Positions 5,724-28,135 of a stretch of 64,000 bases of DNA are shown here, one piece after another. The notes beneath the pieces were generated by a model that saw only the letters and a program-made list of their open reading frames with translations, was not told the origin of the DNA and made no database searches. The position numbers were made by a program, and so were the translations under genes. Each line of letters begins with the position of its first letter. Position 1 is the stretch's first letter. Source of the DNA: an uncultured delta proteobacterium (GTDB taxonomy: Bacteria; Desulfobacterota; Desulfobulbia; Desulfobulbales; Desulfocapsaceae); the NCBI GenBank assembly GCA_963798425.1, contig CAWCTP010000012.1, positions 153,470 to 217,469 of the forward strand, read 5' to 3'.

Positions 5724-7303
5724 AGAGATTTTCGAGTATACTGGCATTGCTCATCGTCGGGGCTGTCGTTGGTTCCTTTCTCACTTTTGTTGGATATCCC
5801 ATGTTGAGTGGCTATCTCAAACCACTTAAGTCAGTACAGAGCAGCGCTCCTGCAACCGCCAAGAAAAAGCCGTTATACTGGGTCGCCCCGATGGATCCCA
5901 ACTATAAAAGAGACAAGCCGGGCAAATCACCAATGGGTATGGATCTTATACCTTTTTATGGGGAAGATACCACCGGTTCGGATGTCGGCCCCGGTACGGT
6001 AAAAATTTCTCCCGATGTGATAAACAATCTGGGGGTGAGAACTGGCCCCGCTCGACTTGGTTTCTTGAAATCTGAAATTCAGACAGTCGGCTATGTTAAG
6101 TACGATGAAGATCAGATGGTGCATATCCATCCCAGAGTAAATGGATGGGTAGATACGCTTTATATTAAAGCCTCGGGCGATCCGGTAAAAAAAGGGGAAC
6201 CACTTTATAATCTCTATTCTCCGGAGCTGGTTAATGCCCAGGAAGAGTTGGTGATGGCTCTTGAGAGAAAGAACCCCCGGCTCATAAGGGCAGCAGAAGA
6301 ACGTTTAGCCTCTTTACGGGTACCCGCTACAGCAATCAATAAATTGAAAGAGTCCAGAGAGGTAAAACAAAATATCACCTTTTACGCGCCACAGAACGGG
6401 GTGATCGATAATTTAGATATTCGTCAGGGATTTTTCGTTAAACCTGGTACTACAATAATGTCGATTGCTTCCCTGGAACAGATGTGGGTGGAGGCTGAGG
6501 TGTTCGAGCGGCAGGTTGCTGGAGTTGCTATTGGACTCCCAGTTACAATGACCCTTGGTTATCTGCCGGGCAAAGAGTGGGATGGGGTTGTTGATTATAT
6601 ATATCCTTCCCTCAGTGCCAAAACTCGAACATTGAAAGTTCGTCTACGATTTGACAATTCCAAAAGACTCCTCAAGCCTGAAATGTTCGCCCAGGTTGAC
6701 ATCCATCTAAATATCACCAAAAAAAGTCTGCTTGTACCAAGAGAAGCGGTAATTCGCACCGGTCGTTCCAATCGGGTAGTTCTGGCTCTCGGAGAAGGTC
6801 GGTTCAAAGCGATAAATGTCGAAGTCGGACGTTTCGATGAGCAGTCAGCCGAGATTCTGTCAGGACTCGTTGAGGGGGAAAAAGTTGTCACTTCCGCGCA
6901 GTTCTTAATTGATTCAGAATCGAGCAAAACCTCTGATTTTAAGCGCATGGATCATAGTGAGAAGGCGCTCCCCGGGAGCGTTTGGGTTGAGGGCACTATC
7001 AATAGTTTAATGGCTGAACACCGGATGATCAACATATCGCACAAGGCAGTAAGTGCCTGGAATTGGCCGGAAATGACCATGGATTTCACGGTGGCAAAAG
7101 ATGTTGATTTTGCCTCACTTAAAGCCGGTATGACCTTGCAGGTAGAGATAACCAAAACACAGGATGGTAAGTATCGAATTACCAAAATCCACCTTCCCGG
7201 CGCTGACGACGCAAACATGAATCTTGATGACTTAAACATGGATGACATGACTCTTGATGATATGAGTCTCGATAAAAAGAAACCAACCGACCATAAGCAA
7301 TAG
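5720..7303 (+). CDS. cusB: RND periplasmic adaptor CusB/CzcB-like with C-terminal CusF-like metallochaperone domain
   Basis: The N-terminal motif YWVAPMDPNYKRDKPGKSPMGMDLIP is characteristic of CusB-family adaptors. It has a membrane-fusion core. The C-terminal roughly 90 aa (MAEHRMINISHKAVSAWNWPEMTMDFTV…) resembles CusF, followed by a DDANMNLDDLNMDDMTLDDMSLD tail. Confidence 0.85.
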   Translation: MKRFSSILALLIVGAVVGSFLTFVGYPMLSGYLKPLKSVQSSAPATAKKKPLYWVAPMDPNYKRDKPGKSPMGMDLIPFYGEDTTGSDVGPGTVKISPDVINNLGVRTGPARLGFLKSEIQTVGYVKYDEDQMVHIHPRVNGWVDTLYIKASGDPVKKGEPLYNLYSPELVNAQEELVMALERKNPRLIRAAEERLASLRVPATAINKLKESREVKQNITFYAPQNGVIDNLDIRQGFFVKPGTTIMSIASLEQMWVEAEVFERQVAGVAIGLPVTMTLGYLPGKEWDGVVDYIYPSLSAKTRTLKVRLRFDNSKRLLKPEMFAQVDIHLNITKKSLLVPREAVIRTGRSNRVVLALGEGRFKAINVEVGRFDEQSAEILSGLVEGEKVVTSAQFLIDSESSKTSDFKRMDHSEKALPGSVWVEGTINSLMAEHRMINISHKAVSAWNWPEMTMDFTVAKDVDFASLKAGMTLQVEITKTQDGKYRITKIHLPGADDANMNLDDLNMDDMTLDDMSLDKKKPTDHKQ

Positions 7304-7315
7304 GGGATAGACAAA

Positions 7316-10300
7316 ATGATTGCATCTATTATACGCTGGTCGGTTGGTAATCGCTTTTTCGTGTTACTGGCTACCATTATGCTGGTAGGCATTGGTCTAT
7401 ATTCGGTGAAGAACACACCTGTTGATGCCTTGCCGGACTTGTCAGACGTGCAGGTGATTATAAAAACATCGTACCCGGGACAGGCGCCTCAGGTGGTTGA
7501 AGACCAGGTGACCTATCCCTTGACGACCGCAATGCTTTCTGTACCGGGAGCGGTAACGGTTCGAGGGTATTCGTTTTTTGGGGATTCGTACGTCTATGTC
7601 ATTTTCAACGATAAAACAGATTTATATTGGGCCAGAAGCAGGGTGCTTGAGTACCTCAGTCAGGTTGCCCCATCACTCCCGGCCGAGGCCAGACCACAGT
7701 TGGGCCCGGATGCCACTGGAGTGGGTTGGGTTTATCTCTATGCCTTAGTGGACAAAACCGGAAAGCATGATATCAGCCAACTCCGATCGCTTCAGGATTG
7801 GTTTTTAAAATACGAACTGCAAACCGTCCCCGGCGTCTCAGAAGTTGCCACCGTGGGTGGTATGGTCAAACAATACCAGGTAATGGTGAACCCGGAAAAG
7901 CTGAGGGCTTTTGGTATCCCGCTGTCCAAAATACAAATGGCAATCAAGGCCGGAAACCAGGAAATCGGGGCATCGGTTGTGGAGATGGCTGAAGCCGAAT
8001 ACATGGTGCGGGCAACCGGCTATCTGCAGAATGCAAAAAATCTGGGCAATATACCGCTTGGGGTCACAGAAAACGGTATCCCACTGCTGTTAAAGGATGT
8101 TGCGGAAATAGGTACTGGCCCACAGATGCGACGGGGCGTCGCAGATTTGAACGGTGAAGGCGAAACCGTGGGTGGTATTATCATCATGCGTTTTGGCGAG
8201 AACGCCCAAACAACTATTGATAGTGTTAAGGCAAAACTTGAGGAACTAAAAGCCGGTCTTCCTGAAGGGGTTGAAATCATTCCGGTCTATGACCGAAGTG
8301 CCTTGATTGAACGTGCAGTCACCAATCTCTGGCACAAGCTGCTGGAAGAATTTGGTGTAGTCGCTTTGGTTTGCGTTGTCTTTCTCTTCCATATCCGTTC
8401 TTCCCTGGTGGCGATTATCAGCTTGCCAGTAGGGATCCTGGCCGCTTTTATTGTCATGCATATGCAGGGTCTCAATGCAAACATCATGTCGCTCGGTGGA
8501 ATCGCAATCGCAATTGGTGCAATGATTGACGGTGCAATAGTCATGATCGAAAACATGCACAAGCATATGGAGAAAACCCCGCTCACCAATGAGAACCGCT
8601 GGCAAATTGTCGCAGAGTCGGCAACTGAAGTAGGCCCTGCTTTGTTTTTCAGCCTGCTGATTATTACAGTCAGTTTTGTTCCTGTTTTTACCCTGGAAGC
8701 CCAGGAGGGACGGATGTTTTCCCCTCTGGCGTTTACCAAGACTTACTCCATGGCCGCCTCAGCCGCACTTTCAATCACGTTAATCCCTGTTTTAATGGGG
8801 TATTTTATTCGGGGCAAGGTGCTGCCGGAGCATAAGAATCCCCTCAACCGTTTGCTGATAGCCATTTACATGCCGCCGCTACGGATGGTCCTGCGCTTTC
8901 CCAAGGTGGTCCTGATCGGGGCTCTGATGGTGCTGGCCATAGGTCTCTGGCCGATCAACAGGATCGGCAGTGAATTTATCCCACCCCTGGATGAAGGAGA
9001 TCTAATGTACATGCCCACAACCTATCCTGGCATATCCATAGGAAAGGCGAGGGAGGTATTACAACAAACCGATAAACTGATCCGCACCGTGCCAGAGGTG
9101 CAGACAGTTTTCGGCAAGGTCGGCAGGGCAGAAACTGCTACAGATCCGGCCCCCCTCACCATGATCGAGACATTTATTCAACTGAAGCCAAAGGATCAGT
9201 GGCGTGCAGGGGTGACCACAGACAGCCTGAAAAAGGAATTGAACAATCTGGTCAAGATACCTGGTTTGACCAATGCCTGGGTGATGCCCATCAAGACGCG
9301 CATCGACATGCTGGCCACGGGAATCAAGACGCCGGTCGGCATCAAGGTAGCCGGCCCCGATTTGAAGGTAATCCAGAAAATTGGTCAGCAAATTGAAACC
9401 GTTATGAAGGATGTTCCTGGTACCGCTTCGGTTTATTCTGAAAGGGTCGCCGGAGGCCGCTATATCAAGGTTGACATTCAACGGGAAAAAGCGGCCAGGT
9501 ACGGCCTGAACATCGCTGATATCCAGCAGGTTGTCGCCTCGGCTATCGGCGGCATGAACGTTACCCAGACAGTCGAAGGCCTGGAGCGCTACCCGGTCAA
9601 TCTGCGTTATCCCCAAGACTATCGTAAGTCGCCGGAGCAACTCTCCCTGTTGCCGATTGTTACCATGGCCGGCCAACGGATTGCCCTGGCGGATGTTGCT
9701 AAAGTTTACATTGAAGACGGACCTCCGGCTATAAAAAGTGAAAATGCTCGTTTGAACGGCTGGACGTTCATCGACATCGAAGGGGTTGATGTAGGCAGCT
9801 ATGTGGAACAGGCTCAAAAGGTGGTTGCCGAAAAAATTCAACTGCCCGCCGGCTATTCCCTCAACTGGTCGGGACAATACGAGTATATGCTGCGGGCCAA
9901 GCAAAAGCTGAAGATGGTGGTGCCGACGACCTTGCTCGTCATCTTCATCCTGCTCTATCTCAATTTCAGGGATGTTACTGAAAGCATCATTGTTATGCTG
10001 TCAGTGCCCTTCGCTCTGACCGGGGGGCTGTGGCTGATCTACTGGCTGGGCTACAACATGAGTGTGGCGGTGGCCGTCGGCTTCATCGCCCTGGCCGGCG
10101 TGGCCGCAGAAACCGGAGTGGTGATGCTCCTCTATCTCGACATCTCCTACCTGAAGTACAAAACGAAGTATGGTCCGGCTTTCTCGAAACGCCACCTGAA
10201 CGAGGCGATCGAAGAGGGGGCAGCGCTCAGGGTCAGGCCGAAGATGATGACGGTAGTCGCCATTATGGCCGGACTTGCCCCGATCATGTGGGGCAGCGGT

Positions 10301-10498
10301 ACCGGCTCCGAGGTTATGAGGCGGATTGCCGCCCCGATGATCGGCGGGATGCTCAGCGCAACGATCTTGACCCTGGTGGTAATCCCGACCATCTATGCCA
10401 TTTGGAAAGGCTGGGGCCTGCCGAAGGAAAGTGAAGGAGCGGCTGGCCGGGCAGGACTCTCCATCGATGTAACCGAAGATCCCAACTCAACCCGATGA
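7316..10498 (+). CDS. cusA: heavy-metal efflux RND permease CusA/CzcA (HME family)
   Basis: 1060-aa, 12-TM RND protein with HME-family conserved blocks ([20 protein letters not shown], large periplasmic loops), directly after cusB. Confidence 0.9.
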
Positions 10499-10616: not shown

Positions 10617-11350
10617 GTGGCCTTGCTGGTACTTGTTGTCGGAATGTGGCCGATTGATAAAAACGCCCGCTTGAACGGCTGGTCTTTTATTGACATTGAA
10701 GGTGTCGATATTGGCAGCTATGTGGTTGAAGCACAGAAGGTCGTGGCGGAGGGGTCAAACTGCCGGCGGGGTATTCTCTCAACTGGTCGGGACAGTATGA
10801 GTACATGTTGCGGGCAAAAGAGAGACTGACCTATGTGGTTCCTCTGACGCTCACCATCATCATCATTTTACTGTATATGAATTTCCGAAATTTCGTGGAA
10901 GTTTCCATCATTATGGGCACCCTGCCCCTGGCGATGGTCGGCAGTATCTGGTTGATGTATCTTGGGGGATATAATTTCAGCGTTGCGGTGGGTGTCGGCT
11001 TTATAGCCCTTGCCGGAGTTACCGTTGAAATCGGTGTAATCATGCTCGTGTAACTTAATCAGTCCTATTACAAGATGCTCGCCGATACAAAGAATGAAGG
11101 CATTTCACCGGGCACAGAGGAATTATCTCTGGCCGTTCTGCATGGCGCCGGCATGCGTATACGGCCGATTATGATGACCGCTGCGGCAATCATCGCCGGA
11201 TTGCTGCCCATACTATTAGGCACCGGTACCGGTTCTGAGGTAATGAGCAGAATTGCTGCCCCAATGGTGGGTGGGATGGTCAGTTCTGTTGTGCTTACCT
11301 TACTGGTTCTTCCTGCGGTTTTCTTTTTGTGGCGTAAACGTTCGCTTTAG
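10617..11350 (+). pseudogene. decayed duplicate of the cusA 3' end (last ~250 codons)
   Basis: Three ORF fragments (10617..10829, 10805..11053, 11075..11350) align in order with the cusA C-terminus at roughly 65% identity ([20 protein letters not shown]…, MLRAKERL…, GTGTGSEVMSRIAAPMVGGM…). They carry one frameshift and one in-frame stop. No N-terminal 800 codons are present. Confidence 0.75.
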
Positions 11351-11357
11351 TACCTTA

Positions 11358-11391
11358 GAAAATCTTTCTCTGCTTTTTGAGAAAGATTTTC
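11358..11391 (+). terminator. perfect 13-bp stem hairpin after the cusA remnant
   Basis: gaaaatctttctc-tgcttttt-gagaaagattttc, 8 nt after the remnant's stop. Confidence 0.4.
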
Positions 11392-11405
11392 GTGAAGGTA
11401 CTTGT
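11379..11405 (+). repeat. left copy of an imperfect direct repeat (gAGAAAGAtTTTCGTGAAGGtACtTgT); the partner is at 27024..27049
   Basis: 22 of 26 core positions are identical between the two loci, with an extended similarity (ctttttgRg…) of about 35 nt. Each copy is followed by a short GC hairpin (cccgc…gcggg / ccccg…cgggg). Confidence 0.5.
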
Positions 11406-13227: not shown

Positions 13228-13299
13228 CAAATCGTTCCAGCGGAAGCCGCGAACAGCGCGGCTCCCGCTGAACTCCACGTTGAGCCTGTAGAAAAAGGT

Positions 13300-15100
13300 A
13301 TTTGGCCTTGTGAAATCAGAGAGTTATTGGTATATTTAGCTACATCAAATGGTAATCAACCGCTCAACTCTGCAGAAAGTCGGAAGCCATGGCCAAATAC
13401 AAGCCTTACTCCTACGCTCAAGGGCAGTTCATACCGGTATACTTCAACAAGCAGATCCAGAAAGGCACCTTCGAATACACACTCAACTATCTCATCGATC
13501 ATGAGCTTGATCTTGGAATTTTTGATAAGCGATTTCGTAACGATGAGACCGGTGCTCCTGCCTACGACCCCAGAATATTGCTAAAGATCATTCTTTTTGC
13601 CTATTCCCGCGGCATCACCTCAAGCCGTTCAATCGCCAGGTGTAGTGAGGAAAATGTGCTTTTCATGGCACTGTCGGCAAATAGCCGTCCCCACTTCACT
13701 ACCATTGCTGATTTCATATCGAGTATGGACAAAGCAGTGGTCAACCTCTTTCTCCAGATCCTTTTAGTCTGTGACCAGCAGAACCTTATTGGTAAGGAGA
13801 TGTTTGCCATCGATGGCTGCAAGCTGCCGAGTAATGCATCCAAGGAATGGAGTGGCACCAAGGAAGACCTGAAGCGTAAAGCGGAAAAGATGGAGAAGGC
13901 CCTGCACCGGATGATAATCCGTCACAAATGCATGGACGAGTCCAAGATTGAGCCGGAGGTGCAGGAAAGAGAAAAGAAGTACCAGGAAAAACTGAAGAAA
14001 AGTGCTGCCAAGATCAGGCAATGGCTTGGCGATAACGATGATCGTACAGGCAGCGGCGGCAAGGCGGTGAAATCGAATATCACCGACAACGAATCTGCGA
14101 AAATGGCGACGTCCAAAGGTGTGATCCAGGGATATGTTGGAGTTGCCTCGGTGGATAAGAAACACCAGGTGATTGTTGGCGCGGAAGCATATGGCCAGGG
14201 CCATGAAACCGATCTTCTGGTGCCTGCAGTGGAGACGATACAATCCAATCTTGCGAAAATCGGCGAATCGGATGCGTTGGATAATGCACAAATTGTGGCC
14301 GACAGTGGCTATCATTCCGAAAAGAATATGGAATATCTCTTTACGGAGAACATAGACGGCTATGTGGCGGACAAGCACTTTAGAAAAAGGGATCCCCGGT
14401 TTATCACCCAGGATAGATATAAAGATTTGCCAAGCTATTATGGCAGCACCAGGAATGGTAAGAAACGATTGTTCAGGCCGTCTGATTTTATCTTTGCCGA
14501 TGACTTGAGTCACGCCATCTGCCCGGCAGGTAAAAGGCTTTACCGTAGCGGCTCCCGTGCCAAGGTGAAAAACTATCTTGCCTACAAGTTCAAAGGAGCG
14601 AAACGGGATTGTCTTCCCTGCGAACTGCGTCGGGAGTGTCTCCGTCATCCAGAAAAAACCGAGATCCGCCAGCTTGCCTATTTAACAGGACGAAACCGCG
14701 CCGGCAAAGAACGATTCACTGAGAAGATGAAGCGCAAGATCGATACTGCTGTTGGCTGTGCGCTGTATGGCATGCGACTGGCTATTGGTGAGCCGCCCTT
14801 CGCGCATATACGCTCGGCAATAGGCCTGGATCGATTCAGCCTACGCGGCAAAAGGAAGGTTAACACGCAGTGGAATCTGTTCTGCATGGTCCATAACTTG
14901 AAGAAAGTGCATGCCTTTGGAACGATAGAGGTGTAAAAGCAGAGAGAAAAGTAGAAGAAGGCCGGAAATAAGCTGAAATGAAGCTCAGGAGAGCGCCAAT
15001 GACATAAGAAAAGGCAATTTATTGAATATTCGGTAAGTTTCAAGGTAACGCCTCAAATTTTGAAATTGAGAGGTAGTGGGAAACTCCGACTTTCAAAAAC
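13300..15100 (+). mobile_element. IS element (boundaries approximate)
   Basis: A single transposase gene flanked by short non-coding stretches. The terminal inverted repeats could not be defined by eye. Confidence 0.4.
13389..14936 (+). CDS. IS1182-family (IS5-like DDE) transposase
   Basis: 515 aa. The N-terminal DUF772-like block PAYDPRILLKIILFAYSRGITSSRSIARCSEENVLFMAL and the C-terminal DDE region match the IS1182/IS5 superfamily. A 294-aa antisense ORF overlaps it and is disregarded. Confidence 0.8.
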   Translation: MAKYKPYSYAQGQFIPVYFNKQIQKGTFEYTLNYLIDHELDLGIFDKRFRNDETGAPAYDPRILLKIILFAYSRGITSSRSIARCSEENVLFMALSANSRPHFTTIADFISSMDKAVVNLFLQILLVCDQQNLIGKEMFAIDGCKLPSNASKEWSGTKEDLKRKAEKMEKALHRMIIRHKCMDESKIEPEVQEREKKYQEKLKKSAAKIRQWLGDNDDRTGSGGKAVKSNITDNESAKMATSKGVIQGYVGVASVDKKHQVIVGAEAYGQGHETDLLVPAVETIQSNLAKIGESDALDNAQIVADSGYHSEKNMEYLFTENIDGYVADKHFRKRDPRFITQDRYKDLPSYYGSTRNGKKRLFRPSDFIFADDLSHAICPAGKRLYRSGSRAKVKNYLAYKFKGAKRDCLPCELRRECLRHPEKTEIRQLAYLTGRNRAGKERFTEKMKRKIDTAVGCALYGMRLAIGEPPFAHIRSAIGLDRFSLRGKRKVNTQWNLFCMVHNLKKVHAFGTIEV

Positions 15101-15152
15101 GGCTTTTTCTATAGACTCGTTATTAGGCATAAGAATCCGGGGGTGGCCGTAG

Positions 15153-16880
15153 ATGGCAAAGAAGAAAAAACTAAGCAATCCATTCTCCACCGGCGGTGGC
15201 GGCGTCCATTTTGAAGCGCATGTCCAAGCGTCCTTTGTCGCGCTGATGCTTACCGGCGGGCACGCTCCCTGTCTTCCCTGCTGGCCTATTGCGGAAATCA
15301 AACTTCAGGGCAAGATTGACGGCTTTGATACAGACGACCTTGTTGTTGTTGTAGAAAACGTGAACAGCAAGGAGCGGCGCAAACTTCTCGGGCAGGTCAA
15401 GCACACCATTGCCATCACGCAGGGCAGCACCCTATTTGGGGAGGTGATGCAGGCCGCCTGGAATGATTTCAAAAATCCTAAGGTGTTCACACGAGATAAG
15501 GATATTATTGCCCTGATCACAGGACCGCTCAGCGCAACCGATGCACACAACGTGCAATGGTTGCTAAACCAGGCGAGGCACACCAAAAACGTTGATGAGT
15601 TTTTCAGAAACGTCCATCAAGCGAATTTCAGCCCACCCAAGAGTGCCGAGAAACTGGAGGTCATTCAGCACCACCTAAAAGCAGCAAACGGTGGCAACGA
15701 CGTTTCAAGGGATGAACTCTATGACTTCCTTAACCACTTCCATCTGCTTGGTTACGATCTTGGTAACGAGTTCGGCGTTGTCCTGTCTCTGCTGCATTCC
15801 CACATTTCCCAATTCCAGCAGCATCAGCAGCAATGGGTCTGGTCACGGGTTGTCGATATTGTACAAACATGGAATCAAGATGCTGGTACGATCACGCCCG
15901 GCAAGTTGCCGGACGACCTTCTGGAAGCATTTAAGCAAAAGGCCGTGGCGGAAATGCCCGAGGAATTGAAGGCGGCACAGGAGAAACCTAAAACTGATTG
16001 GACTCAGCACCCTGACGCCACCTATCTGGCCTTGGCAGTTTTGATTGGCGCTTGGCAAGACAAAAGTCAATGCGACCTTGAGGCGATAACCCAACTGCTC
16101 GACATAAGTTATGACGAGTGGCTAAAGAAGGCGCGGGAAATATTACACTACCCTGACAGCCCGTTGGCTCTCAAAAACGGTATCTGGAAAGTTGTTAATC
16201 GAGCCGAGCTTTGGGGCCTGCTAGGATCGCGCATCCTTGATCAAAACCTTGATACTTTTAGGCCGCTTGCTGTTACCGTACTGAAGGAGCCAGACCCCGC
16301 TTTTGAACTGCCCGCCGAAGAGCGATACGCGGCAAGCATTCATGGCAAGGTGCTGAAATGTTCACATGTGTTGCGAAAAGGCATTGCCGAGGGTTTGGCC
16401 ATTCTGGGCAGCCAGCCAGAGTCGTGCCTTAACTGCTCGCAAGGGAAAGCTGAAGCAGCCTGCGCATTGGTAATACGTGAACTTCTGACCGATGCTGACT
16501 GGGTTTTGTGGGGCAGCCTGAACGGTTTGCTGCCCACTCTGGCCGAAGCCGCCCCGGGTGAATTTCTTGATGGTGTCGAAAAGACGATGCAGCTGACGCC
16601 CTGTCCTTTTGATGAGCTTTTCTCCCAGGAAGGCAACGGCATCACCGGCGGCAATTATTTAACCGGTCTACTCTGGGCGTTGGAAGGGCTGGCATGGGAT
16701 GAACAATATCTGGTTCGAGTCTGTGTTGCGCTTGGTGAACTTGCCAGTCATGACCCTGGCGGCCGGTGGGCCAATCGTCCATCCAATTCGCTTGCTACCA
16801 TTTTGCTGCCCTGGCTGCCACAGACGCTGGCATCTGTTGACAAACGCAAGGTGGCGGTGCGAACGATCCTTAATGAATGA
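15153..16880 (+). CDS. large hypothetical protein, N-terminal part (possible PD-(D/E)xK-like nuclease core)
   Basis: 575-aa ORF with no P-loop. It contains FDTDDLVVVVEN…GQVKH, a pattern compatible with a D-x(n)-E/QxK nuclease motif. It ends at TGA 16878-16880, but the same frame stays open into ORF 17046..18692. Confidence 0.55.
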   Translation: MAKKKKLSNPFSTGGGGVHFEAHVQASFVALMLTGGHAPCLPCWPIAEIKLQGKIDGFDTDDLVVVVENVNSKERRKLLGQVKHTIAITQGSTLFGEVMQAAWNDFKNPKVFTRDKDIIALITGPLSATDAHNVQWLLNQARHTKNVDEFFRNVHQANFSPPKSAEKLEVIQHHLKAANGGNDVSRDELYDFLNHFHLLGYDLGNEFGVVLSLLHSHISQFQQHQQQWVWSRVVDIVQTWNQDAGTITPGKLPDDLLEAFKQKAVAEMPEELKAAQEKPKTDWTQHPDATYLALAVLIGAWQDKSQCDLEAITQLLDISYDEWLKKAREILHYPDSPLALKNGIWKVVNRAELWGLLGSRILDQNLDTFRPLAVTVLKEPDPAFELPAEERYAASIHGKVLKCSHVLRKGIAEGLAILGSQPESCLNCSQGKAEAACALVIRELLTDADWVLWGSLNGLLPTLAEAAPGEFLDGVEKTMQLTPCPFDELFSQEGNGITGGNYLTGLLWALEGLAWDEQYLVRVCVALGELASHDPGGRWANRPSNSLATILLPWLPQTLASVDKRKVAVRTILNE

Positions 16881-18692
16881 CCGGATATCGCCTGGAATCT
16901 GATCATTCAGCTTCTTCCCGGTCAGCACCGGACCTCTTCTGGATCGCACAAACCAAGCTGGCGTAAGACCATCCCCGATGATTGGGAAAAAGGGATTACG
17001 CATCAGGAATACTGGCAGCAGGCATCTTTTTACGCGGAACTTGCGGTGGCTGCCGCAGGCCAAGATACTGTCCGGCTTTCCGCATTGATTGATCATTTTG
17101 ATAACCTACCTGAACCCGCTTTTAATCAACTTCTCCAGGTTCTTGCCTCCCAATCCATTTCAGAACTCTCCGAAGAACAACGACTTTCGATTTGGGACCA
17201 TCTCACGAAATTCACAAACAAACATCGGCGGTTCTCCGATGCGAAATGGTCATTGCCCGACGAACTGATTACCCGCATTGAACAAGTTGCCGAGCAACTC
17301 GCCCCCACCAGCCCGTTAAATTTATATCAGCACCTTTTTACAAATCGTGACTTTGATCTCTACGAAGAGAATGGCAATTGGGAAGAGCAGCGCAAGAAAC
17401 TCGAGACGCGACGTGAAACGGCCATTTTGGAAATCTTTCAGCAAGATGGCACTGAGGGTGTCATACGATTTGCCGAATCCGTTTCTTCACCAGGTCAGGT
17501 CGGGCATGCGCTTGGCATTATTGCCGATCCAGTCATTGAGCGAACCCTTTTGCCTCACTTCCTAGGTTCAGAAGACAACAGGCGCAGGGAATTGGTGAGC
17601 GGTTTTATCTGGCGGCGTTACTACCTAAAAGGCTGGGGGTGGTGCGACGACATCAATAAATCTGATTGGACTCCAGAGCAAGTAGCACAATTTCTGGCTT
17701 GTTTGCCGTTTACCAAGGAAACATGGGATCGCGCTTCTGAATGGCTCCAGGCCCACGAGAATGAATATTGGACCCGCACAGGCGCTAATGCCTATCAGGC
17801 CAATGGTGATCTTGCCATTGCCATTGAGAAACTGATTGAACATGGCAGACCACACGCGGCAATCAACTGCCTAGACAGGATGCGCCATGACAAGCAGCCA
17901 ATCGATAGTAATCAATGTGTTCGAGCGTTGCTCGCAGCACTTTCCTCCAGTGAGCCCAGCTACGCCATGGACGGGTACCACATCGTCGAACTGATCACGT
18001 TTCTTCAGGCAGAGCCTTCGGTTAGCCAAGACGACCTCTTTAGAGTCGAGTGGGCATATGTTCCCTTGCTCGACCGTCATAGAGGTGCCGCGCCCCAACT
18101 CCTTGAAAGCAGACTGGCCAATGACCCCGAGTTCTTTTGCGAGGTAATTCGACTGATCTACCGTTCCCAGAAAGAAGATCAGCCGTCGAGAGAACCCACC
18201 GAGGAATCAAAGGCAATCGCAACAAATGCCTGGCAATTGCTACATGAGTGGAAAACACCGCCTGGAACACAAAAAGATGGAACGTTCAGCGAAGAGCGCT
18301 TTACTGAATGGCTCCAAAGGGTAAAGGAAGTCTGTACGGAATCCGGCCACCTGGAAGTTGCACTCATCAATATTGGCGAAGTATTGATTCACACCCCACC
18401 CGATCCAGGCGACTTATGGATACGCCGCGCTGTCGCTGCCGCATTGAATGACCGCGAAGCTGATGACATGCGCGCCGGTTTCAGGACGGGGACATACAAC
18501 TCACGCGGTGTTCATTGGGTTGACCCAACCGGAAATCCGGAGAGAGAACTGGCTGAGCAGTTCCGGAGCAAAGCCGAGGAAATAGAGAACGCTGGGTTTC
18601 AGCGATTTGCAGTTACCTTGAGAGGTTTGGCGGACAGCTACGACCGCGAAGCTGAACGGATAATTAACGATAACAAAGACCGGGAAGATTAG
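16881..18692 (+). CDS. large hypothetical alpha-helical protein, C-terminal part (in-frame continuation of 15153..16880)
   Basis: The frame is continuous from 16881 with protein-like, Trp-rich translation (PDIAWNLIIQLLPGQH…). The first ATG is at 17046. The combined reading frame is about 1180 aa. Confidence 0.5.
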   Translation, partial: PDIAWNLIIQLLPGQHRTSSGSHKPSWRKTIPDDWEKGITHQEYWQQASFYAELAVAAAGQDTVRLSALIDHFDNLPEPAFNQLLQVLASQSISELSEEQRLSIWDHLTKFTNKHRRFSDAKWSLPDELITRIEQVAEQLAPTSPLNLYQHLFTNRDFDLYEENGNWEEQRKKLETRRETAILEIFQQDGTEGVIRFAESVSSPGQVGHALGIIADPVIERTLLPHFLGSEDNRRRELVSGFIWRRYYLKGWGWCDDINKSDWTPEQVAQFLACLPFTKETWDRASEWLQAHENEYWTRTGANAYQANGDLAIAIEKLIEHGRPHAAINCLDRMRHDKQPIDSNQCVRALLAALSSSEPSYAMDGYHIVELITFLQAEPSVSQDDLFRVEWAYVPLLDRHRGAAPQLLESRLANDPEFFCEVIRLIYRSQKEDQPSREPTEESKAIATNAWQLLHEWKTPPGTQKDGTFSEERFTEWLQRVKEVCTESGHLEVALINIGEVLIHTPPDPGDLWIRRAVAAALNDREADDMRAGFRTGTYNSRGVHWVDPTGNPERELAEQFRSKAEEIENAGFQRFAVTLRGLADSYDREAERIINDNKDRED

Positions 18693-19447: not shown

Positions 19448-19740
19448 GGGGTCGGACCACGTTAAGTGTATGAATTAATTGTGTAATACCGGAAAGAAGT
19501 GGTAGTTTGCATTCTTGCAATGCCCTTTTGGGTGGAGAATAGGTAGCTTTAAGGAAAGTGTTTGTGGAAAATAGGGGACGTAGGAAATAGGGGACGTCCT
19601 TAAAAAATAAAATTAGTTGTCCTTTACTTTAGGGCTTGCCGGAGTAAACAGGAAATCATTCCAAGAATAGCCAGACTTGATAGCCCCCCGTGCCCCCCCC
19701 TTTTTGATCTCCCCATGGTTGTTGTTAAGGTCCGACCCCA
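19448..19740 (+). repeat. 12-bp inverted repeats (tggggtcggacc / ggtccgacccca) flanking a 270-bp segment with tandem 17-nt repeats and a C8 tract
   Basis: Arms lie at 19447-19458 and 19729-19740. Inside are ggaaaataggggacgta-ggaaataggggacgtcc (19566-19599), a C6 tract (19684-19689) and a C8 tract (19693-19700). Confidence 0.35.
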
Positions 19741-19825
19741 TTTGGATTTGGCTTCCATTCTCATTTGGCTTTGCGATCAATTTTTACGAAGGACAACACT
19801 GCTATACTACTTATCGGTTGCAATT

Positions 19826-19986
19826 TTTTCCTGTTTACAGGGAAAATAGATGAAATTCAGATCGGTTTGCTGTTCTTGAGGATTGTTTAGTTGTTTTTAC
19901 TCGTTTACAGGGAAAAAATGTTGACTATTGAATCTTGATTGCTATCATTTGAACATAACAGTTTATTTTCCCGTTAAACAGGGAGG
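19826..19986 (+). promoter_or_regulatory. hipB promoter region with three operator-like repeats spaced 70 bp apart
   Basis: TTTTCC-tgtttacag-GGAAAA is a perfect palindrome at 19826-19846. Related copies lie at 19896-19916 and 19966-19986; the last overlaps the RBS. A sigma70-like TTGACT-16-TATCAT lies at 19921-19948, and a GGGAGGAGG RBS sits before ATG 19991. Confidence 0.45.
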
Positions 19987-19990
19987 AGGC

Positions 19991-20242
19991 ATGGAGAGAC
20001 AGCTAGCACACATTATTAGATTTCACAGAAAACGCAGTGGATTGACTCAGCTTGAGCTCGCTGAAATGGCTGGTGTCGGGAAAAATCTGATTTATGAAGT
20101 CGAAAATGGCAAACTAAGTTTGCGCCTGGATAACTTACTGAAGGTTCTCCAGGTTCTAAATATCGATCTCAACTTTCAAAGTCCCCTTCGTGAGAGTTTT
20201 TTGAAGGAGTATCCTAATGCGGATAGCGGATGTGTTTTTTAA
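19991..20242 (+). CDS. hipB: HipB-like XRE-family HTH antitoxin/repressor
   Basis: MERQLAHIIRFHRKRSGLTQLELAEMAGVGKNLIYEVENG is a Cro/C1-type HTH. It is the first gene of a three-gene operon with overlapping starts and stops. Confidence 0.8.
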   Translation: MERQLAHIIRFHRKRSGLTQLELAEMAGVGKNLIYEVENGKLSLRLDNLLKVLQVLNIDLNFQSPLRESFLKEYPNADSGCVF

Positions 20243-20546
20243 AAATATTACGGCCGGACAGCTTACCCAGATGGATGAAGACGGGAAGTATTGTTTTCGT
20301 TATGCTCTGAACTACGCTGGCCCCCCGATTTCGGCGACAATGCCGGTACGGAGTGAGGCCTATCTATTTGATAGTTTCCCTCCTTTTTTTGACGGCTTAC
20401 TGCCGGAGGGATTTCAACTCGAAGCTCTTTTGCGCCAAAGAAAACTCGATCGGAACGACAGATTCGGGCAGCTACTTCAGGTTGGAGCTGATACCGTCGG
20501 TGCGGTAACAGTGAGTGAACATCTATTGGAAGAAAGGTGCAAATGA
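20217..20546 (+). CDS. hipS: HipS-like protein (HipA N-terminal subdomain as a separate polypeptide)
   Basis: 109 aa resembling HipA N-terminal subdomain 1. AAGGAG RBS upstream. Overlaps hipB by 26 bp and hipT by 10 bp. Confidence 0.75.
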   Translation: MRIADVFFKNITAGQLTQMDEDGKYCFRYALNYAGPPISATMPVRSEAYLFDSFPPFFDGLLPEGFQLEALLRQRKLDRNDRFGQLLQVGADTVGAVTVSEHLLEERCK

Positions 20547-21469
20547 ATCGATGTCCTCTCACCTATCAGCCCTGTGTCGGCGCATACTCCGAACAAGGTT
20601 TGAAACTTCTCTCCCGGCGCCTGATAGGACTAAAAGATTTACCGTTCACCGCCGAGGAGTTACGCCGGGAGGCAGCTGCTCGCTCTGAGAAAATGTCCAT
20701 CCAAGGTGTCCAGCCCAAATTGTCGGCAAAACTGAACATTAAAGAACAACAATTTGATTTTGTTGACAGGAGCGGTCTTTATATTCTCAAACCTCAAACT
20801 GCAGACTATCTGGAGGTGCCGGAGAATGAAGATCTCAGCATGCGATTTGCACGTGTAGCGGGCATTGAGGTGCCCCTGCATGGTCTGCTTTATGGACGGG
20901 ATCGACAGTTGAGTTATTTCATTCGCCGTTTTGACAGAGTCGGCCGTAACGACAAGGTTCATGTTGAGGATTTTGCTCAACTTGCCGGACTCTCACGTGA
21001 TACAAAATATCGATCCAGCATGGAACAAGTGGCAGGTTTGATAGACAGATACTGTACCTTTCCGGCTGTCGAGAGACTCAAATTATTTCGTCTGATTTTG
21101 TTCTGTTTTCTGATTGGCAATGAAGATATGCATCTGAAAAATTTTTCTATTATATACAGAGATGACGTTATAGGGCTGTCTCCGGCCTATGACCTCTTGA
21201 ATACAACCATCGCCTTGCCTCATCCAGAGGAAGAACTCGCCCTGCCGTTAAATGGTAAAAAGAACAAGCTGAAACGACAGGATTTGGTTGATTATTTCGG
21301 ACGGAATCGATTGCAGTTGACAAACCGGGTGATTGATAAGGTAATGCTGGAATTGAAGCAGGCACGTACGACTTGGGAACAATTACTAGCTGTTAGTTTC
21401 CTGTCAGAGCAAATGAAAGAGAAATATCTCAGTGTGCTGGAAGATCGATTTTTAAGACTGTATGGATAG
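20537..21469 (+). CDS. hipT: HipT-like Ser/Thr kinase toxin (HipA C-terminal kinase core lacking N-subdomain)
   Basis: Contains GVQPK and the catalytic GNEDMHLKNFS motifs of HipA-family kinases. The length (310 aa) and gene order match the HipBST tripartite type. Confidence 0.8.
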   Translation: MQMNRCPLTYQPCVGAYSEQGLKLLSRRLIGLKDLPFTAEELRREAAARSEKMSIQGVQPKLSAKLNIKEQQFDFVDRSGLYILKPQTADYLEVPENEDLSMRFARVAGIEVPLHGLLYGRDRQLSYFIRRFDRVGRNDKVHVEDFAQLAGLSRDTKYRSSMEQVAGLIDRYCTFPAVERLKLFRLILFCFLIGNEDMHLKNFSIIYRDDVIGLSPAYDLLNTTIALPHPEEELALPLNGKKNKLKRQDLVDYFGRNRLQLTNRVIDKVMLELKQARTTWEQLLAVSFLSEQMKEKYLSVLEDRFLRLYG

Positions 21470-21568
21470 GCGCACTACGATCAACCAAGACGAAGTTGAT
21501 TTTTAACCATTTATTATTTATCGCGGCAATTGGTGCCTGCCGTGTCAAGAATAAAGATTTGCTCCCTC

Positions 21569-22390
21569 TTATTTACTTCCCAGTAGATACACCTCCGTAA
21601 ATGTCGGATCAATATTATGATAAGACTCCAGCAAGACTAGAAATTTGCCACGTACTCGCGGGTATTTGTTCATGATTTTTTTGAACTTCTGCGGGTAGGT
21701 GAAGATCATGGCAGCGTATTCGTTGATATCGTTTTCGACGCTGGTTTGCGCGTATGTATCCATAAAGCCTTTTTCAAAATCGACCTCTGTCCCACCTAAA
21801 TGCGAGACGCTCTTGTATGTCTTTAGTGGATCCTTGGTTGTGTTGTATAAGTAGTCAAATTCCTTTGGATTATTTGCAGTCCAGAGATTGGTGTCAAATG
21901 AATTACGTTGCAACAAAAGGGAACTGAACTCATGATGAAAAGCGTATATACCATCATCATGAGCTTGGAATCCACTATCAATCAAATATATGCTCCTTTT
22001 CAAAGGATCATATAATGCTCCATAGTTAAACCCATTTTTTTTAGTGATTCTCCCAGCAAAATTAATAGTAGATAAATGGTTTTTGATTACTTGAACCGGA
22101 TACCTCTCTAATGCCGTTTGCAAGATATCAGCATAGCGAACTAGCACCCTAGGCCAAATCGGTTTGATGATGGGCGATTCTTCCCAAGCTGATAAAAAAT
22201 CCGCGTCAACCTTGTAGACAATCTTGATCCCATATTTGGATGTAATTGGTTCAAAACAAGCGTCAATTTCCTCTTTGGTATAGGTCGTATGAAGATAGAT
22301 GAAATACAATTTACCGCCGACAGCGAGCACCAGCAGAATTGCTAATAAATAGTTTACTACCTTGTTCATCGGTCTATATTTGATCATATC
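21569..22390 (-). CDS. hypothetical membrane-anchored protein (AT-rich)
   Basis: About 274-aa ORF with an N-terminal TM (VVNYLLAILLVLAVGG) and a soluble domain. Overlaps the end of the upstream LysM gene. The start codon is uncertain. Confidence 0.5.
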   Translation of the reverse strand, partial: DMIKYRPMNKVVNYLLAILLVLAVGGKLYFIYLHTTYTKEEIDACFEPITSKYGIKIVYKVDADFLSAWEESPIIKPIWPRVLVRYADILQTALERYPVQVIKNHLSTINFAGRITKKNGFNYGALYDPLKRSIYLIDSGFQAHDDGIYAFHHEFSSLLLQRNSFDTNLWTANNPKEFDYLYNTTKDPLKTYKSVSHLGGTEVDFEKGFMDTYAQTSVENDINEYAAMIFTYPQKFKKIMNKYPRVRGKFLVLLESYHNIDPTFTEVYLLGSK

Positions 22391-23360
22391 ACGCATCTGG
22401 ATATTCATGACGTTTTGGGTCAACGGAGTGTTTGAAAGACATAATTGAGGTCATTTCTCCTGGTCTAAATGTTGCTATGCGAATTGCTGGGAAAAAACGT
22501 GCGATAACCGTGATCGCTACCAAAGCGAAAATCGCAGTTAGATAGTCGTCCGTTTTGGTCACATCTACCGAGGTGGTTGGATCTAAAGCTCTAACATCCA
22601 CCGCCGCATTATCCCGAACCGGTGCTTTATTCACTCCCTTGGATCTTGGATGCATGATCACCTCAACTTTGAGCTCGATATCGGCGCTGAATTTGTATTT
22701 TACTCCCCTAACTTCCAAGGTGCCGTTGAGAGTTTGAGGCTTAATGAAGCCCGCCCAATGGATAGGGCTATCCTTCTGAACTTTTACCGTAAAGGGGCCA
22801 AGATTGGCCTCGGTCGCTAGAGGTGCCTTGATTTTGACTATGCCGGACTCGAACACCATCTCAGGTTTGGCCGTCAGGGCAGACAGGGCCGGGTCGTATG
22901 TCTTGTATAATTTTTGCTTGGCCTGTATGGGGTCTTTGCTTATGAGCAGTTCAAAGCCGTGTTGGCGCATGTTGTCGGACATGGTTTCGATGCTGATCTT
23001 GCCGCTTAACTCGGTTTTGACCGTGAAGTCAAGATAAGGACGGACGTATTTGATTTGTGGCGTGTCATGGCCGATTGAGTAGGTAACTTTCAGATCGAGT
23101 GGAATTGCTGATTTTCCACCTTCAACTTTGACGCCGGTTCCTGGTTGCAGATTTATTTTGCGTGCCGGCAGTACAATCGTCTGTCCCACATAAATCAGAT
23201 TTTCATTTACAATGGGAATCAGTGGGCGTTGCTGATGTTGCTTTGCGGCCTCTTTATTGTGTTCGTTGAAAATATCTGGCCATCTGGTGCCGCTACCCAA
23301 ATATTGGTAGGCCAAGCTCCATAGACTGTCTCCCTTTTTAACCAAATGATACAAAGGCAT
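22389..23360 (-). CDS. LysM domain protein
   Basis: The N-terminal LysM motif YHLVKKGDSLWSLAYQYLGSGTRWPDIFNEHN…GQTIVLP is followed by a beta-rich domain. The gene is AT-rich. Confidence 0.65.
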   Translation of the reverse strand: MPLYHLVKKGDSLWSLAYQYLGSGTRWPDIFNEHNKEAAKQHQQRPLIPIVNENLIYVGQTIVLPARKINLQPGTGVKVEGGKSAIPLDLKVTYSIGHDTPQIKYVRPYLDFTVKTELSGKISIETMSDNMRQHGFELLISKDPIQAKQKLYKTYDPALSALTAKPEMVFESGIVKIKAPLATEANLGPFTVKVQKDSPIHWAGFIKPQTLNGTLEVRGVKYKFSADIELKVEVIMHPRSKGVNKAPVRDNAAVDVRALDPTTSVDVTKTDDYLTAIFALVAITVIARFFPAIRIATFRPGEMTSIMSFKHSVDPKRHEYPDA

Positions 23361-24508
23361 TTTGCCTCCTTTTTAAGTTGTAACCCAACGGTGATTTAAT
23401 GTTTGGCTTTTTTATCTTTGACACTTTGCCAGCGTTATGACGACGTTCCTGCGTATCTAGATGGAATCTTGTTGCCAGGAGATCCTTTAGTCAAATGGGT
23501 CGCAGACTACTTATCCGTGTTGGATTTCACAACTTTTCCCTCCGTATAAAATTTTCTATTTCAACCCTGCCTTGGTAAGGGTTGACTGTAATCTTATATG
23601 CAAAATGTCCCAAGAAGCCAATTTTGCATAAGGTCATATACCTCCTGAATTTGAATTGTCCTCGCAGCAGAAGACTGTTTGGAAAAACTATCTTCAAGCC
23701 ATGAACACCAATAATGGGTCAAGCAAAGAGTAAACGTTCACCAGCAACCCATATGCTTGCGATGAACCCCCCTTGCATAGGAACGTTGTGTTTTTTCTCT
23801 ATCTGCTTTCTGATGCTCGACTCTTCTTCCAGATCCCTTTTTCCAAGGAGGGCCTTTATCTCTTCAACAAACCCGACACATCCTCTTGTATTCATGGAGT
23901 TGTGATAGCTTTGATATCTTATATTTTTCTTACATTTTTAAGGTTGATAGAGAAAAACGAGCTTGCTGGGGACGTCACATATCACGCTTTTGGATATTCT
24001 TGGAGTTTGGGGTCAATGAAATGCTCGAAAGACATAACCGAGGCTGTCGTTCTTGGTTGAAGTTGTATTTTACTCCACCGACCTCCACGGTGCCATTGAG
24101 AGTGGCAGACTTAATGGTGCCGGACATATGGTTGGGGCTCTCTTCACCTAATTGCCTTCTTTTAGGTCTTGATGAGGCCTCCCGCTTTGCTGAAGTTAGG
24201 GTGGTGATTGATGAGAAAATGGTTTCTTATCACAATCTTTCTCGGTCGCCAATCTTCCCAGTCCGAAACACCTGTGATATTAAATTCCCTTATGATTTCA
24301 TGAAGATTTGTAAACTCTGACAATTGCCACTTCATTTTCGAGATCGGGAGTTCTGAACCTGAAGTTCGGTTTGCACCGCATTGAGTTTCCGGGCACCTGT
24401 GTCTTTCGACAAGTATTTGGTGGCTGTTTATAATTGGAATGATTATCATAAATAGGGTAATGTAACATTGAAGTAAATACTTAAACACTCTACGGAATTC
24501 ACTCTGTT

Positions 24509-26782
24509 ATGGCTATAGAAAACATCGAAGCCAAAATTAAAGGTATGCATTGTGCGGCATGTTCCTCGCGCATTGAACGTGTGGTCGGTAACATGGAAGG
24601 GGTTACCGAATGTTCTGTGAATTTGGCTACAGAACGGGCTAAAATTGCATATGATCCAGTAGCAATTACCATCACCGCAATCGAACAGGCTATAGCCGGT
24701 CTGGGTTTTTCAGCTGAGGTTGCAACGGATGATTCAGACGATTCCGGTGATGCCCGAGAAGCGGCTGACCGCTTGGAGGCGATGAAGAATAGCCTGCTTC
24801 CAGCATTTGTCCTGGCATTGGCTATCATGTGTCTGTCAATGTCGGGAATGGTTGGAGTCACACTGCCGGAAATCGTACACCCCAATCATTCACCCTTCAC
24901 CTACGCGATAATCCAGTTTCTACTCCTTTTGCCAGTTCTCTATCTCGGCAGAAATTTTTATCTGAATGGCATTCCGGCACTTCTGCGTGGAGGGCCGAAC
25001 ATGGATAGTTTAATTGCTATGGGTACCGGCGCCGCTTTCATCTACTCCACCTGGAATCTGATTGAAATTGGACTTGGGATCAATCCTGTCGCTCGTGCCC
25101 ATGATCTCTATTTTGAATCGGCAGCCATGTTGATTGCTTTGGTTTCCTTGGGAAAATATCTGGAGGCCCGGTCAAAGTCCAGAACCACAGATGCTATAAA
25201 GCAACTGATGCAGCTTGCTCCTGAGACTGCCACGCTGCTCGACGGTAACGAACAGCGCCAGGTGGCGGTGTCTGAGATACAGATAAGTGATCGCATCCTG
25301 ATCCGACCTGGAGAAAGAATCCCGGTTGATGGGAAAATAACCGATGGGGAATCCGCAGTTGACGAATCAATGCTTACCGGTGAGAGCATGCCGGTGTTGA
25401 AAAGAAAGGGTGATGATCTTTTTGGTGGCACGTTGAACAAAAACGGCGCCTTGACCATGGAAGCGAAAAAAGTCGGACGTGATACAATGCTGGCCCGAAT
25501 TGTGAAACTTGTACAGGACGCACAAGGGACGAAGGCGCCGATAGCCAATCTTGCCGATCGTGTCAGCTTCTATTTTGTGCCAACCGTAATAGTAATTGCA
25601 TCGCTGGCAGGTTTGAGCTGGTTTTTCATTGGTGGTGCAGAGTTTAGTTTTGCTCTGCGTATTTTTATAGCTGTTTTGGTGATCGCTTGTCCTTGTGCCA
25701 TGGGTCTGGCCACGCCAACTTCTATCATGGTCGGAACTGGCCGTGGTGCACAGCTGGGGGTCCTGGTAAAAAGCGGAGCAATACTTGAGCTGGCCCAGAA
25801 GGTGAGTTGTGTGGTTTTTGATAAAACCGGCACGCTTACCCGCGGTAGACCTGAGGTCACCGATATTCGTCCTTTTTCCGATTATGATGAAAAAATGCTT
25901 TTGAGTCTTTCTGCCGGGGCGGAGAGTCACTCGGAGCATCCTCTAGCTGAAGCGATTATTACAGCAGCACGAAAAAGTGATTGTTCTATTCCCGAACCAC
26001 AATCTTTTTCGGCAACACTTGGTCGGGGTATTACATCGTCTCTACTGTTGGATGGTAATAACTATGAGGTACTCTTTGGCAACATCGAATTTCTCCGGGA
26101 AAATCACATTGAGGGTCTAACCGAGCAGGTTCAGAGGGAGGCAAGTGCGTTGTCTGATCAGGGGAAGACCGTTTTGTATCTCGCGGTTGGTAAAGCTTTG
26201 GCCGGTCTACTGGCCATTGCCGATCAATTGAAAGATGAGGCGAGGGATACAGTGAAACATCTTGAGGCGATGGGGATTAAAGTCGTGATGCTTACCGGGG
26301 ATAATGAGAAAACAGCAACCGCAATTGCTCGTGAGGCAGGGATAAAACGGGTTGTCGCCGATGTTCTGCCGGACAAGAAAGAAGAGGAAGTTGTTAGATT
26401 ACAGCAGGAAGGTGAGATCGTTGCCATGATCGGGGATGGAATCAATGATGCACCTGCACTGGCAAGGGCTGATGTCGGCATTGCCATGGGTACAGGAATT
26501 GATGTTGCTATGGAGTCGGCCGATATAGTTTTGATGACCGGCCATCTGTCCGGGGTCGGTCGGGCTATTGGCCTTAGTCGGGCGACCATGAGGAATATTC
26601 ACCAGAATCTTTTCTGGGCCTTTGCTTATAATGTGATAGGGATCCCTGTGGCGGCTGGAATCTTGGCCATCTTTGGTGGGCCAACCCTTAATCCGATGAT
26701 TGGCGGTGCTGCCATGGCACTTAGTTCTGTTTCCGTCGTTACTAATGCTCTGCGTCTCAGGTGGTATCAACCTGAAGTCTAG
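24509..26782 (+). CDS. copA: copper-translocating P1B-type ATPase CopA
   Basis: N-terminal HMA ([12 protein letters not shown]). TM motif [11 protein letters not shown] (CPC). DKTGTLT phosphorylation site. [10 protein letters not shown] hinge. 757 aa. Confidence 0.9.
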
Positions 26783-26978: not shown

Positions 26979-27023
26979 TTAGTCTCTCCTCTTAGTGACT
27001 TAGGAAGTCTTTACCCGTTTTTG

Positions 27024-27049
27024 GGGAAAGAATTTCGTGAAGGAACGTA
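27024..27049 (+). repeat. right copy of the imperfect direct repeat (gGAAAGAaTTTCGTGAAGGaACgTaT)
   Basis: See the feature at 11379-11405. It lies about 240 nt downstream of the copA stop and 220 nt upstream of the flavodoxin gene. Confidence 0.5.
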
Positions 27050-28067: not shown

Positions 28068-28135
28068 TTAATATCTTAGAAATTCTTTCCCAAACAGTGG
28101 AACAAGAATTTCTAAGTCACTAAAAGGAGAGACCA

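Follow-up and report, generated by a model that had tools for sequence, protein, structure and literature searches.

A probable Legionella-type HipBST toxin-antitoxin cassette in a Desulfobacterota-like chromosome

The tripartite toxin-antitoxin (TA) system HipBST has been described in Legionella pneumophila (Lpg2368-Lpg2369-Lpg2370; PDB 7VKB, 7VKC, 7WCF, 8EZR, 8EZS and 8EZT; Zhen et al. 2022, PMC9325769; Lin et al. 2023, PMC10653801) and in Escherichia coli O127:H6 (PDB 7AB3-7AB5; Vang Nielsen et al. 2019; Baerentsen et al. 2023, PMC10627512). HipS of the Legionella system (Lp) was reported to bind HipT with a dissociation constant of 42 nM; the P-loop of the kinase is ejected or disordered, and ATP binding is blocked. 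Legionella HipB is an operator-binding regulator, which alone does not neutralise the toxin. HipBST(Lp) and the E. coli system HipBST(Ec) are separate subclades. The "SIQ group" was defined by Baerentsen et al. (PMC10627512), and the corresponding Legionella motif is SVQ/SIQ (PMC10653801). In this study, we analyzed three genes, hipB, hipS and hipT, in a 64,000-nucleotide (nt) stretch of contig CAWCTP010000012.1 from an uncultured delta proteobacterium; the whole stretch is hereafter called the window. With a probability of roughly 0.9, these genes constitute a functional, self-contained type II tripartite TA cassette of the HipBST family, of the Legionella-type SIQ group, in a Desulfobacterota-like chromosome. 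Toxicity, neutralisation, DNA binding and autophosphorylation would be expected of the cassette by homology to the experiments on the Legionella and O127 proteins.

A check of the open reading frames (ORFs) in the window showed three overlapping ORFs on the same strand at 19991-21469, in the order hipB-hipS-hipT (Table 1). An earlier reading made from the DNA letters alone (hereafter the sequence-only reading) had placed three overlapping genes here, and its coordinates were right to the base. hipB and hipS overlap by 26 nt, and hipS and hipT by 4 nt (ATGA, with the hipS stop codon at 20544-20546). GGAGG is found 4-5 nt before the hipB start, and GGAG 7 nt before the hipS start. Two start codons are available for hipT, GTG at 20537, which gives the 310 amino acids (aa) of the sequence-only reading, and ATG at 20543, which gives 308 aa. 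The ATG aligns with Met1 of L. pneumophila HipT. The length of 308 aa is that of most of the closest database relatives, and it is the commonest length among 77 related loci. (The related loci, here and below, are 80 genome loci, L001-L080, of which L001 and L002 are the two closest.) Because of this alignment, these homologue lengths and the ATGA overlap, the 308-aa HipT starting from the ATG is the more likely product. The N-subdomain is encoded by a separate ORF with its own stop codon, not as part of a single-chain HipA of the HipBA family. No second Hip homologue was found within the 64-kb window.

Searches with Pfam and NCBIfam profiles assigned each product to a family. HipB matched HTH_3 (6.7e-12) and TIGR03070 couple_hipB (77.1 bits, which exceeds the cut-off of that profile), in agreement with the 83-aa XRE helix-turn-helix (HTH) protein that had been proposed. 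HipS was matched end to end by Couple_hipA/PF13657 (1.3e-24), and TIGR03071 also matched. The sequence-only reading had described this 109-aa protein as similar to the N-subdomain of HipA, a similarity on which it had made itself depend, and the full-length match bears it out. HipT matched HipA_C/PF07804 (3.8e-47), and no Couple_hipA domain was matched in HipT by the same profile searches. These matches confirm the description of HipT as a kinase core without the N-subdomain.

The structural matches were obtained by a search against all PDB sequences. For each product, the best solved match was a Legionella protein: HipT(Lp) for HipT (8EZR/7VKB/7WCF; E=3e-106, residues 1-306, 358 bits, ~55% identity), HipS(Lp) for HipS (7VKB_B; 3.5e-30, 108 bits, ~55% identity) and HipB(Lp) for HipB (8EZT; 7e-20). 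Alignment to the O127 proteins, which had been suggested as a check, also gave significant similarity for HipT (1.7e-29, residues 9-238, 106 bits) and HipS (1.3e-11, 48 bits), but the Legionella proteins are far closer. E. coli K-12 HipA matched weakly (E ~1e-5 to 1e-4). Its residues 8-103 align to HipS (3.7e-5), and its C-terminal part aligns to HipT.

The residues of HipT were mapped onto the Legionella numbering, and their invariance was judged in 78 aligned homologues. Of the two motifs named in the sequence-only reading, GVQPK occupies HipT residues 55-59 and GNEDMHLKNFS residues 192-202. D195, H197, K199 and N200 correspond to Lp D197, H199, K201 and N202, and these four residues and D217 are invariant in the 78 homologues. 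The H199A mutant of HipT(Lp) is non-toxic (PMC9325769). In the P-loop, S52 and Q54 correspond to Lp S54 and Q56, and G55 and K59 are also present; S52, Q54 and K59, like the catalytic residues, are conserved with respect to the Legionella protein and do not vary among the 78 homologues. The six HipT(Lp) residues D133, R134, E144, R154, K157 and K201, the alanine substitutions of which abolished or severely cut HipS binding (PMC9325769), are D131, R132, E142, R152, K155 and K199 here, and all six positions are invariant in the homologues. The catalytic Asp and His and the Mg-binding Asp, whose absence would have counted against the earlier proposal, are thus in place. These residues and the profile matches together support a tripartite HipB-HipS-HipT architecture in which the N-subdomain is split off from the kinase core.

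The P-loop distinguishes the two HipBST subclades. The tripeptide SIQ occurs in 66 of the 78 homologues. HipT Gln54 aligns with Ser59 of O127 HipT, and the dual-serine S-psi-S motif of O127 is not found here. A check for autophosphorylation serines in the Gly-rich loop had been proposed; S52 is present, but as a single serine and not as the O127 pair. Since the P-loop has a single serine and a Gln at the position of O127 Ser59, the locus, as judged from this motif, belongs to the L. pneumophila/SIQ subclade and not to the O127 subclade. HipS Phe66 aligns with Trp65 of E. coli HipS and is followed by Gln67; the Legionella residues are I65/M66. In the relatives, the Trp65 column is occupied by I, F, V, Y, A or M in 74 of 78 sequences, and Trp is not among these six.

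These residues bear on the target of the kinase. The sequence-only reading had assigned the locus to a family in which HipT phosphorylates tryptophanyl-tRNA synthetase (TrpS). The locus would then be an O127-type HipBST, in which HipT blocks translation by phosphorylating TrpS. Such an interpretation is in line with the shared tripartite architecture and with the similarity to O127 HipT and HipS given above, and every known target of a Hip kinase is an aminoacyl-tRNA synthetase (PMC10653801). The Legionella proteins are, however, far closer (3e-106 for HipT), the P-loop carries SIQ and not S57-I-S59, HipS has Phe in place of Trp65, and the two systems fall into separate subclades. Furthermore, the toxicity of HipT(Lp) was not rescued by TrpS, GltX, PheST or other phosphoproteomic candidates (PMC10653801). 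An O127-type system acting on TrpS is quite improbable for this locus. Since the closer Legionella homologue is not rescued by TrpS and the O127 hallmarks, S-psi-S and Trp65, are missing, the assignment of TrpS should not be transferred, and by analogy to Legionella TrpS is probably not the target of this HipT. Our literature search found no later paper that names a substrate for the HipT(Lp) clade.

For a cassette of the Legionella-type SIQ group, the following mode of action would be expected. A single promoter would drive a translationally coupled hipB-hipS-hipT operon. Free HipT, a Ser/Thr kinase of the HipA fold, would phosphorylate an essential protein of the cell and so arrest growth. 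HipS, which corresponds to N-subdomain 1 of HipA as a separate protein, would bind the N-lobe of HipT and push the P-loop from the ATP site, so that the toxin is neutralised. Dimers of HipB would occupy three evenly spaced operators, which lie on either side of the promoter and extend over the ribosome-binding site, and HipT, with or without HipS, would join HipB on the DNA and tune the repression. HipT probably autophosphorylates S52, and by the Legionella analogy this need not inactivate the kinase. Since both S54A and S54D of HipT(Lp) stay toxic (PMC10653801), autophosphorylation is probably not an off-switch for HipT of the SIQ clade.

The region upstream of hipB was analyzed for operators and a promoter. 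Three operator-like boxes, O3, O2 and O1, start 70 and 71 nt apart, leaving gaps of ~52-53 bp, and the predicted promoter shows 10 of 12 consensus matches. Within the 64 kb, only three matches to the box (<=3 mismatches) were found, all in this region, against 0.09 expected by chance. The operators and the promoter are conserved in the closest relatives. In 76 related loci, GC-containing palindromes are 3.8 times commoner than in shuffled sequences, with peaks at about -20, -90 and -160, which correspond to O1, O2 and O3, respectively. Measured from box to box, the best offset falls at 69-73 nt in 47 of the 75 loci; another 13 of 75 show 61 nt, shorter by one helical turn. The half-sites differ by lineage, being TTCCC...GGGAA in the Desulfobacterota loci and TTACTG...CAGTAA, as in Legionella, in the loci of Ignavibacteria and Bacteroidota. 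In electrophoretic mobility shift assays, HipB(Lp) bound three 18-nt operators that lie 53 bp apart, and HipT associated with the DNA-bound HipB both in the presence and in the absence of HipS (PMC10653801). Since the palindrome peaks and the box offsets recur across the related loci, the three-operator design is, as far as these upstream sequences tell, a property of the whole subclade and not of Legionella alone.

Several facts weigh against a functional cassette of the Legionella type. Between the end of O1 and the start codon there are 6 nt here, as compared with 24 nt in L. pneumophila. Since both the position of O1 and the half-site sequence differ from those of Legionella, the repression geometry may differ as well. 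No intrinsic terminator was found after hipT. Several HipS contacts are changed with respect to the Legionella protein (E58 to D, K73 to Q, Q90 to A, I65 to F and M66 to Q). Finally, a screen of the ASKA library and phosphoproteomics gave no validated target of HipT(Lp) (PMC10653801). It is worth noting that an O1 at the same position as that of Legionella was considered and rejected; the O1 of the window starts at -24, and the published oligonucleotides put the end of the Legionella O1 24 nt before the start, a difference of 18 nt.

The family to which HipT belongs is very large. At E<=1e-20, HipT matches at least 7,996 proteins, and the closest relatives, which are 94% identical, come from an uncultured "delta proteobacterium" and from metagenome-assembled genomes of Desulfobacterales/Desulfobulbales. 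The order hipB-hipS-hipT is found in 77 of the 80 related loci. Two of the exceptions, L035 and L039, are short contigs without an upstream hipB match, and the third, L045, has a truncated hipT match with no hipS or hipB match. The ATGA overlap of hipS and hipT is present in 58 of the 77 loci. The ratio of nonsynonymous to synonymous substitution rates (dN/dS), measured against five relatives, lies at 0.05-0.23 across the three genes and at 0.07-0.17 for hipB alone.

These values bear on whether the locus is still active. The region accumulates gene fragments, and the cassette might be a decaying, non-functional TA remnant within it: a frameshifted cusA fragment (10617-11350), partial copies of a LysM gene and an insertion sequence (IS) lie nearby, and hipT is broken in L045. 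Against this stand three intact ORFs with ribosome-binding sites, conserved catalytic and HipS-binding residues of HipT, the low dN/dS values and the operators and promoter kept in the closest relatives. We regard a remnant as highly improbable, and a functional TA cassette is the preferred reading.

The DNA of the cassette was compared with that of L001 and L002 by blastn. The similarity is 92.6% to L001, over window positions 19781-21502 only, and 88.5% to L002, over 19823-21511 only. It begins just before O3 and stops ~35-40 nt past the hipT stop codon. No similarity to L001 or L002 was found by blastn in the flanks, although 2-4 kb of flank was available. The neighbours of the cassette are an HI1420-type antidote gene and flaG in L001, and trkA/usp and a glycogen-debranching enzyme gene in L002. 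Since the similarity ends sharply at both edges and the flanks are unrelated, the DNA comparison indicates that the hipBST module is exchanged horizontally as a 1.7-kb unit with its own control region. No transposase was found among the tested flanking ORFs of L001 and L002. A 515-aa ORF beside the L002 cassette has the same length as the IS1182 transposase of the window and was considered as a second copy of it, but it encodes an unrelated TrkA/Usp protein and was rejected.

Many TA systems are now known to act in phage defence. The cassette might likewise serve mainly in anti-phage abortive infection, in which infection frees HipT and shuts the cell down, rather than primarily in addiction or persistence. 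Its horizontal mobility and its position in a variable region fit such a role, and the catalytic region of HipT weakly matches a PADLOC candidate-defence family, PDC-M03A (2e-7). The matched segment, however, is only ~40 residues long and lies in the shared catalytic loop of the kinase. Six neighbouring gene products were compared with PADLOC, and no defence family was matched by any of them; we found no published phage phenotype of a HipBST system in the HipBST literature drawn on. A mainly anti-phage role seems unlikely, and it would be compatible with the TA mechanism and not opposed to it.

Table 1. Positions in the window of the cassette, its parts and the neighbouring insertion sequence.
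Feature	Position	Strand	Description
Conserved cassette	19781-21511	+	Extent of blastn similarity to the closest relatives: operators, promoter, hipB, hipS, hipT
Distal operator-like box O3	19828-19845	+	TTCCTGTTTACAGGGAAA, 18-nt imperfect palindrome
Middle operator-like box O2	19898-19915	+	TACTCGTTTACAGGGAAA; ends 5 nt before the -35 hexamer
Sigma-70-like promoter (predicted)	19921-19948	+	TTGACT-16 nt-TATCAT, extended TG, between O2 and O1; consensus match
Proximal operator-like box O1	19967-19984	+	TTTCCCGTTAAACAGGGA; overlaps the Shine-Dalgarno region, ends 6 nt before the hipB ATG
hipB	19991-20242	+	ATG start, 83 aa; XRE/Cro-type HTH, putative operator-binding autoregulator
hipS	20217-20546	+	ATG start, 109 aa; HipA N-subdomain 1 homologue, putative antitoxin
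hipT	20543-21469	+	308-aa HipA_C Ser/Thr kinase core, putative toxin; alternative GTG start at 20537
HipT P-loop (Gly-rich loop)	20690-20722	+	K50-M-S52-I-Q54-G-V-Q-P-K59-L; S52, putative autophosphorylation site
HipT catalytic loop	21116-21148	+	G192-NEDMHLKNF-S202, with D195, H197, K199, N200
HipT D217, Mg2+-binding Asp	21191-21193	+	Motif SPAYD; maps to Lp D219 and E. coli HipA D332
IS1182-family element	13282-15118		515-aa transposase at 13389-14936; NF033551, 254 bits, just below the 270-bit cut-off

On one side of the cassette is a cusCBA-like efflux operon (4292-10498), and on the other a gene for a copper P-type ATPase (24509-26782). Between these copper loci there are also ORFs of 264, 575 and 548 aa without a family match, genes for a MaoC-like dehydratase and a metallopeptidase-like protein, and a LysM gene of which partial copies lie nearby. 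The sequence-only reading had the cassette in an island next to an IS. An island is a plausible and fair description: the DNA that separates the two copper-resistance loci contains an IS, fragmented genes and orphan ORFs. The IS, however, is not adjacent; the IS1182-family element ends ~4.9 kb upstream of the cassette, with three genes between. Candidate terminal inverted repeats of 16 nt lie at its ends (13282-13297 and 15103-15118). In the window, genes for sigma-54 activators, Fe-S proteins, a TRAP transporter and DUF2284 fit a Desulfobacterota chromosome. No Rfam hits and no tRNA genes, which could mark an integration site, were found in the whole window.

Several further observations were made in this region. 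The ORFs at 15153-16880 (575 aa) and 17046-18692 (548 aa), between the IS and the MaoC gene, have a GC content of ~0.51 and gave no significant Pfam, NCBIfam or PADLOC match; they may be cargo of a variable region. Directly after the intact cusA (7316-10498) lies the frameshifted fragment mentioned above, which is the C-terminal part of a second CusA-like RND pump. The DNA at 9741-10137 and at 10660-11055 is 69% identical, which suggests a decayed tandem or replaced copy. The partial copies of the LysM-domain gene (22389-23360) are stretches of 66-85 nt with 76-80% identity, ~1.5 kb apart (22385-22772 and 23978-24142), and they too point to rearrangement of this DNA. A tandem direct repeat, AATAGGGGACGT(A/C) in two copies, lies at 19571-19600, within the 557 nt of non-coding DNA that separate the MaoC gene from the left edge of the cassette. 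A repeat of ~55-63 nt (78-86% identity) occurs in intergenic DNA near gene ends at 11347-11401, 26992-27046 and 28079-28133 (reverse), and also in L002 at 5445-5506, ~500 nt downstream of hipT. It may be an element like a repetitive extragenic palindrome (REP) or a miniature inverted-repeat transposable element (MITE). Farther away, a 1721-aa ORF at 44348-49513 fuses a DEAD/Helicase_C (superfamily 2) module to a UvrD-type (superfamily 1) helicase module.

With this locus, a very large and structurally characterised clade gains a further member, and little changes for the field. Its interest lies in the control region and in the edges of the cassette. The three-operator architecture was first described only in Legionella, and the comparison shows that it is kept across Desulfobacterota, Bacteroidota, Ignavibacteria and others. 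The operator spacing keeps its helical phase (~71 or 61 nt) while the half-sites diverge. How the module moves is documented by the sharp edges of near-identical copies whose surroundings are unrelated. The main question is the substrate of the SIQ-clade HipT, for which this locus is no easier to test than the Legionella system. We tentatively put forward a combined picture, to which we give somewhat less than an even chance: the substrate of the SIQ-clade HipT would be none of the known Hip targets (GltX, TrpS and LysS), the 1.7-kb cassette would spread autonomously between phyla, and operator and HipB would diversify together (TTCCYG...CAGGGAA in Desulfobacterota versus TTACTG...CAGTAA in Legionella, Bacteroidota and Ignavibacteria).

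Among the known systems, HipBA of E. coli K-12 (3DNT, 3TPB) shares the fold, in that HipS and HipT together correspond to full HipA, and it shares the catalytic Asp, the Mg-binding Asp, the P-loop Ser and an HTH autoregulator. It differs in that HipA is a single chain of 440 aa, HipB is the antitoxin, the target is GltX and the operators are 5-nt repeats; the sequence similarity is weak. The O127 HipBST shares the tripartite architecture. Its HipS antitoxin derives from N-subdomain 1 of HipA, its HipT is a HipA-like kinase, and it is neutralised by an ejected Gly-rich loop, a function that would hold here by analogy. It is nevertheless distant in sequence. Its autophosphorylated S57 and S59 and its HipS Trp65 are not found here, its target is TrpS, and operator motifs of the Legionella type were reported absent from its promoter.

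The Legionella HipBST is also not identical to the present locus. The host here is a Desulfobacterota-like anaerobe. The Legionella O1 is TTACTGCTATAACAGTAA, with half-sites TTACTG...CAGTAA as against TTCCYG...CAGGGAA here. Legionella HipB has 72 aa and overlaps hipS by 4 nt, versus 83 aa and 26 nt here, and HipS has I65/M66 where F66/Q67 are found here. The likeness to Legionella nevertheless extends over the whole cassette. Both loci have the same gene order with translational coupling; the identity is ~55% for HipT and for HipS, and the HipB match has an E-value of 7e-20. The P-loop motif is S-psi-Q, with only one Ser. The catalytic D, H, K, N and D do not differ, nor do the HipT residues needed for HipS binding. 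In both systems, HipS lacks a Trp at the position of E. coli W65, and the upstream DNA contains three imperfect palindromic operators of 18 nt, separated by ~52-53 bp.

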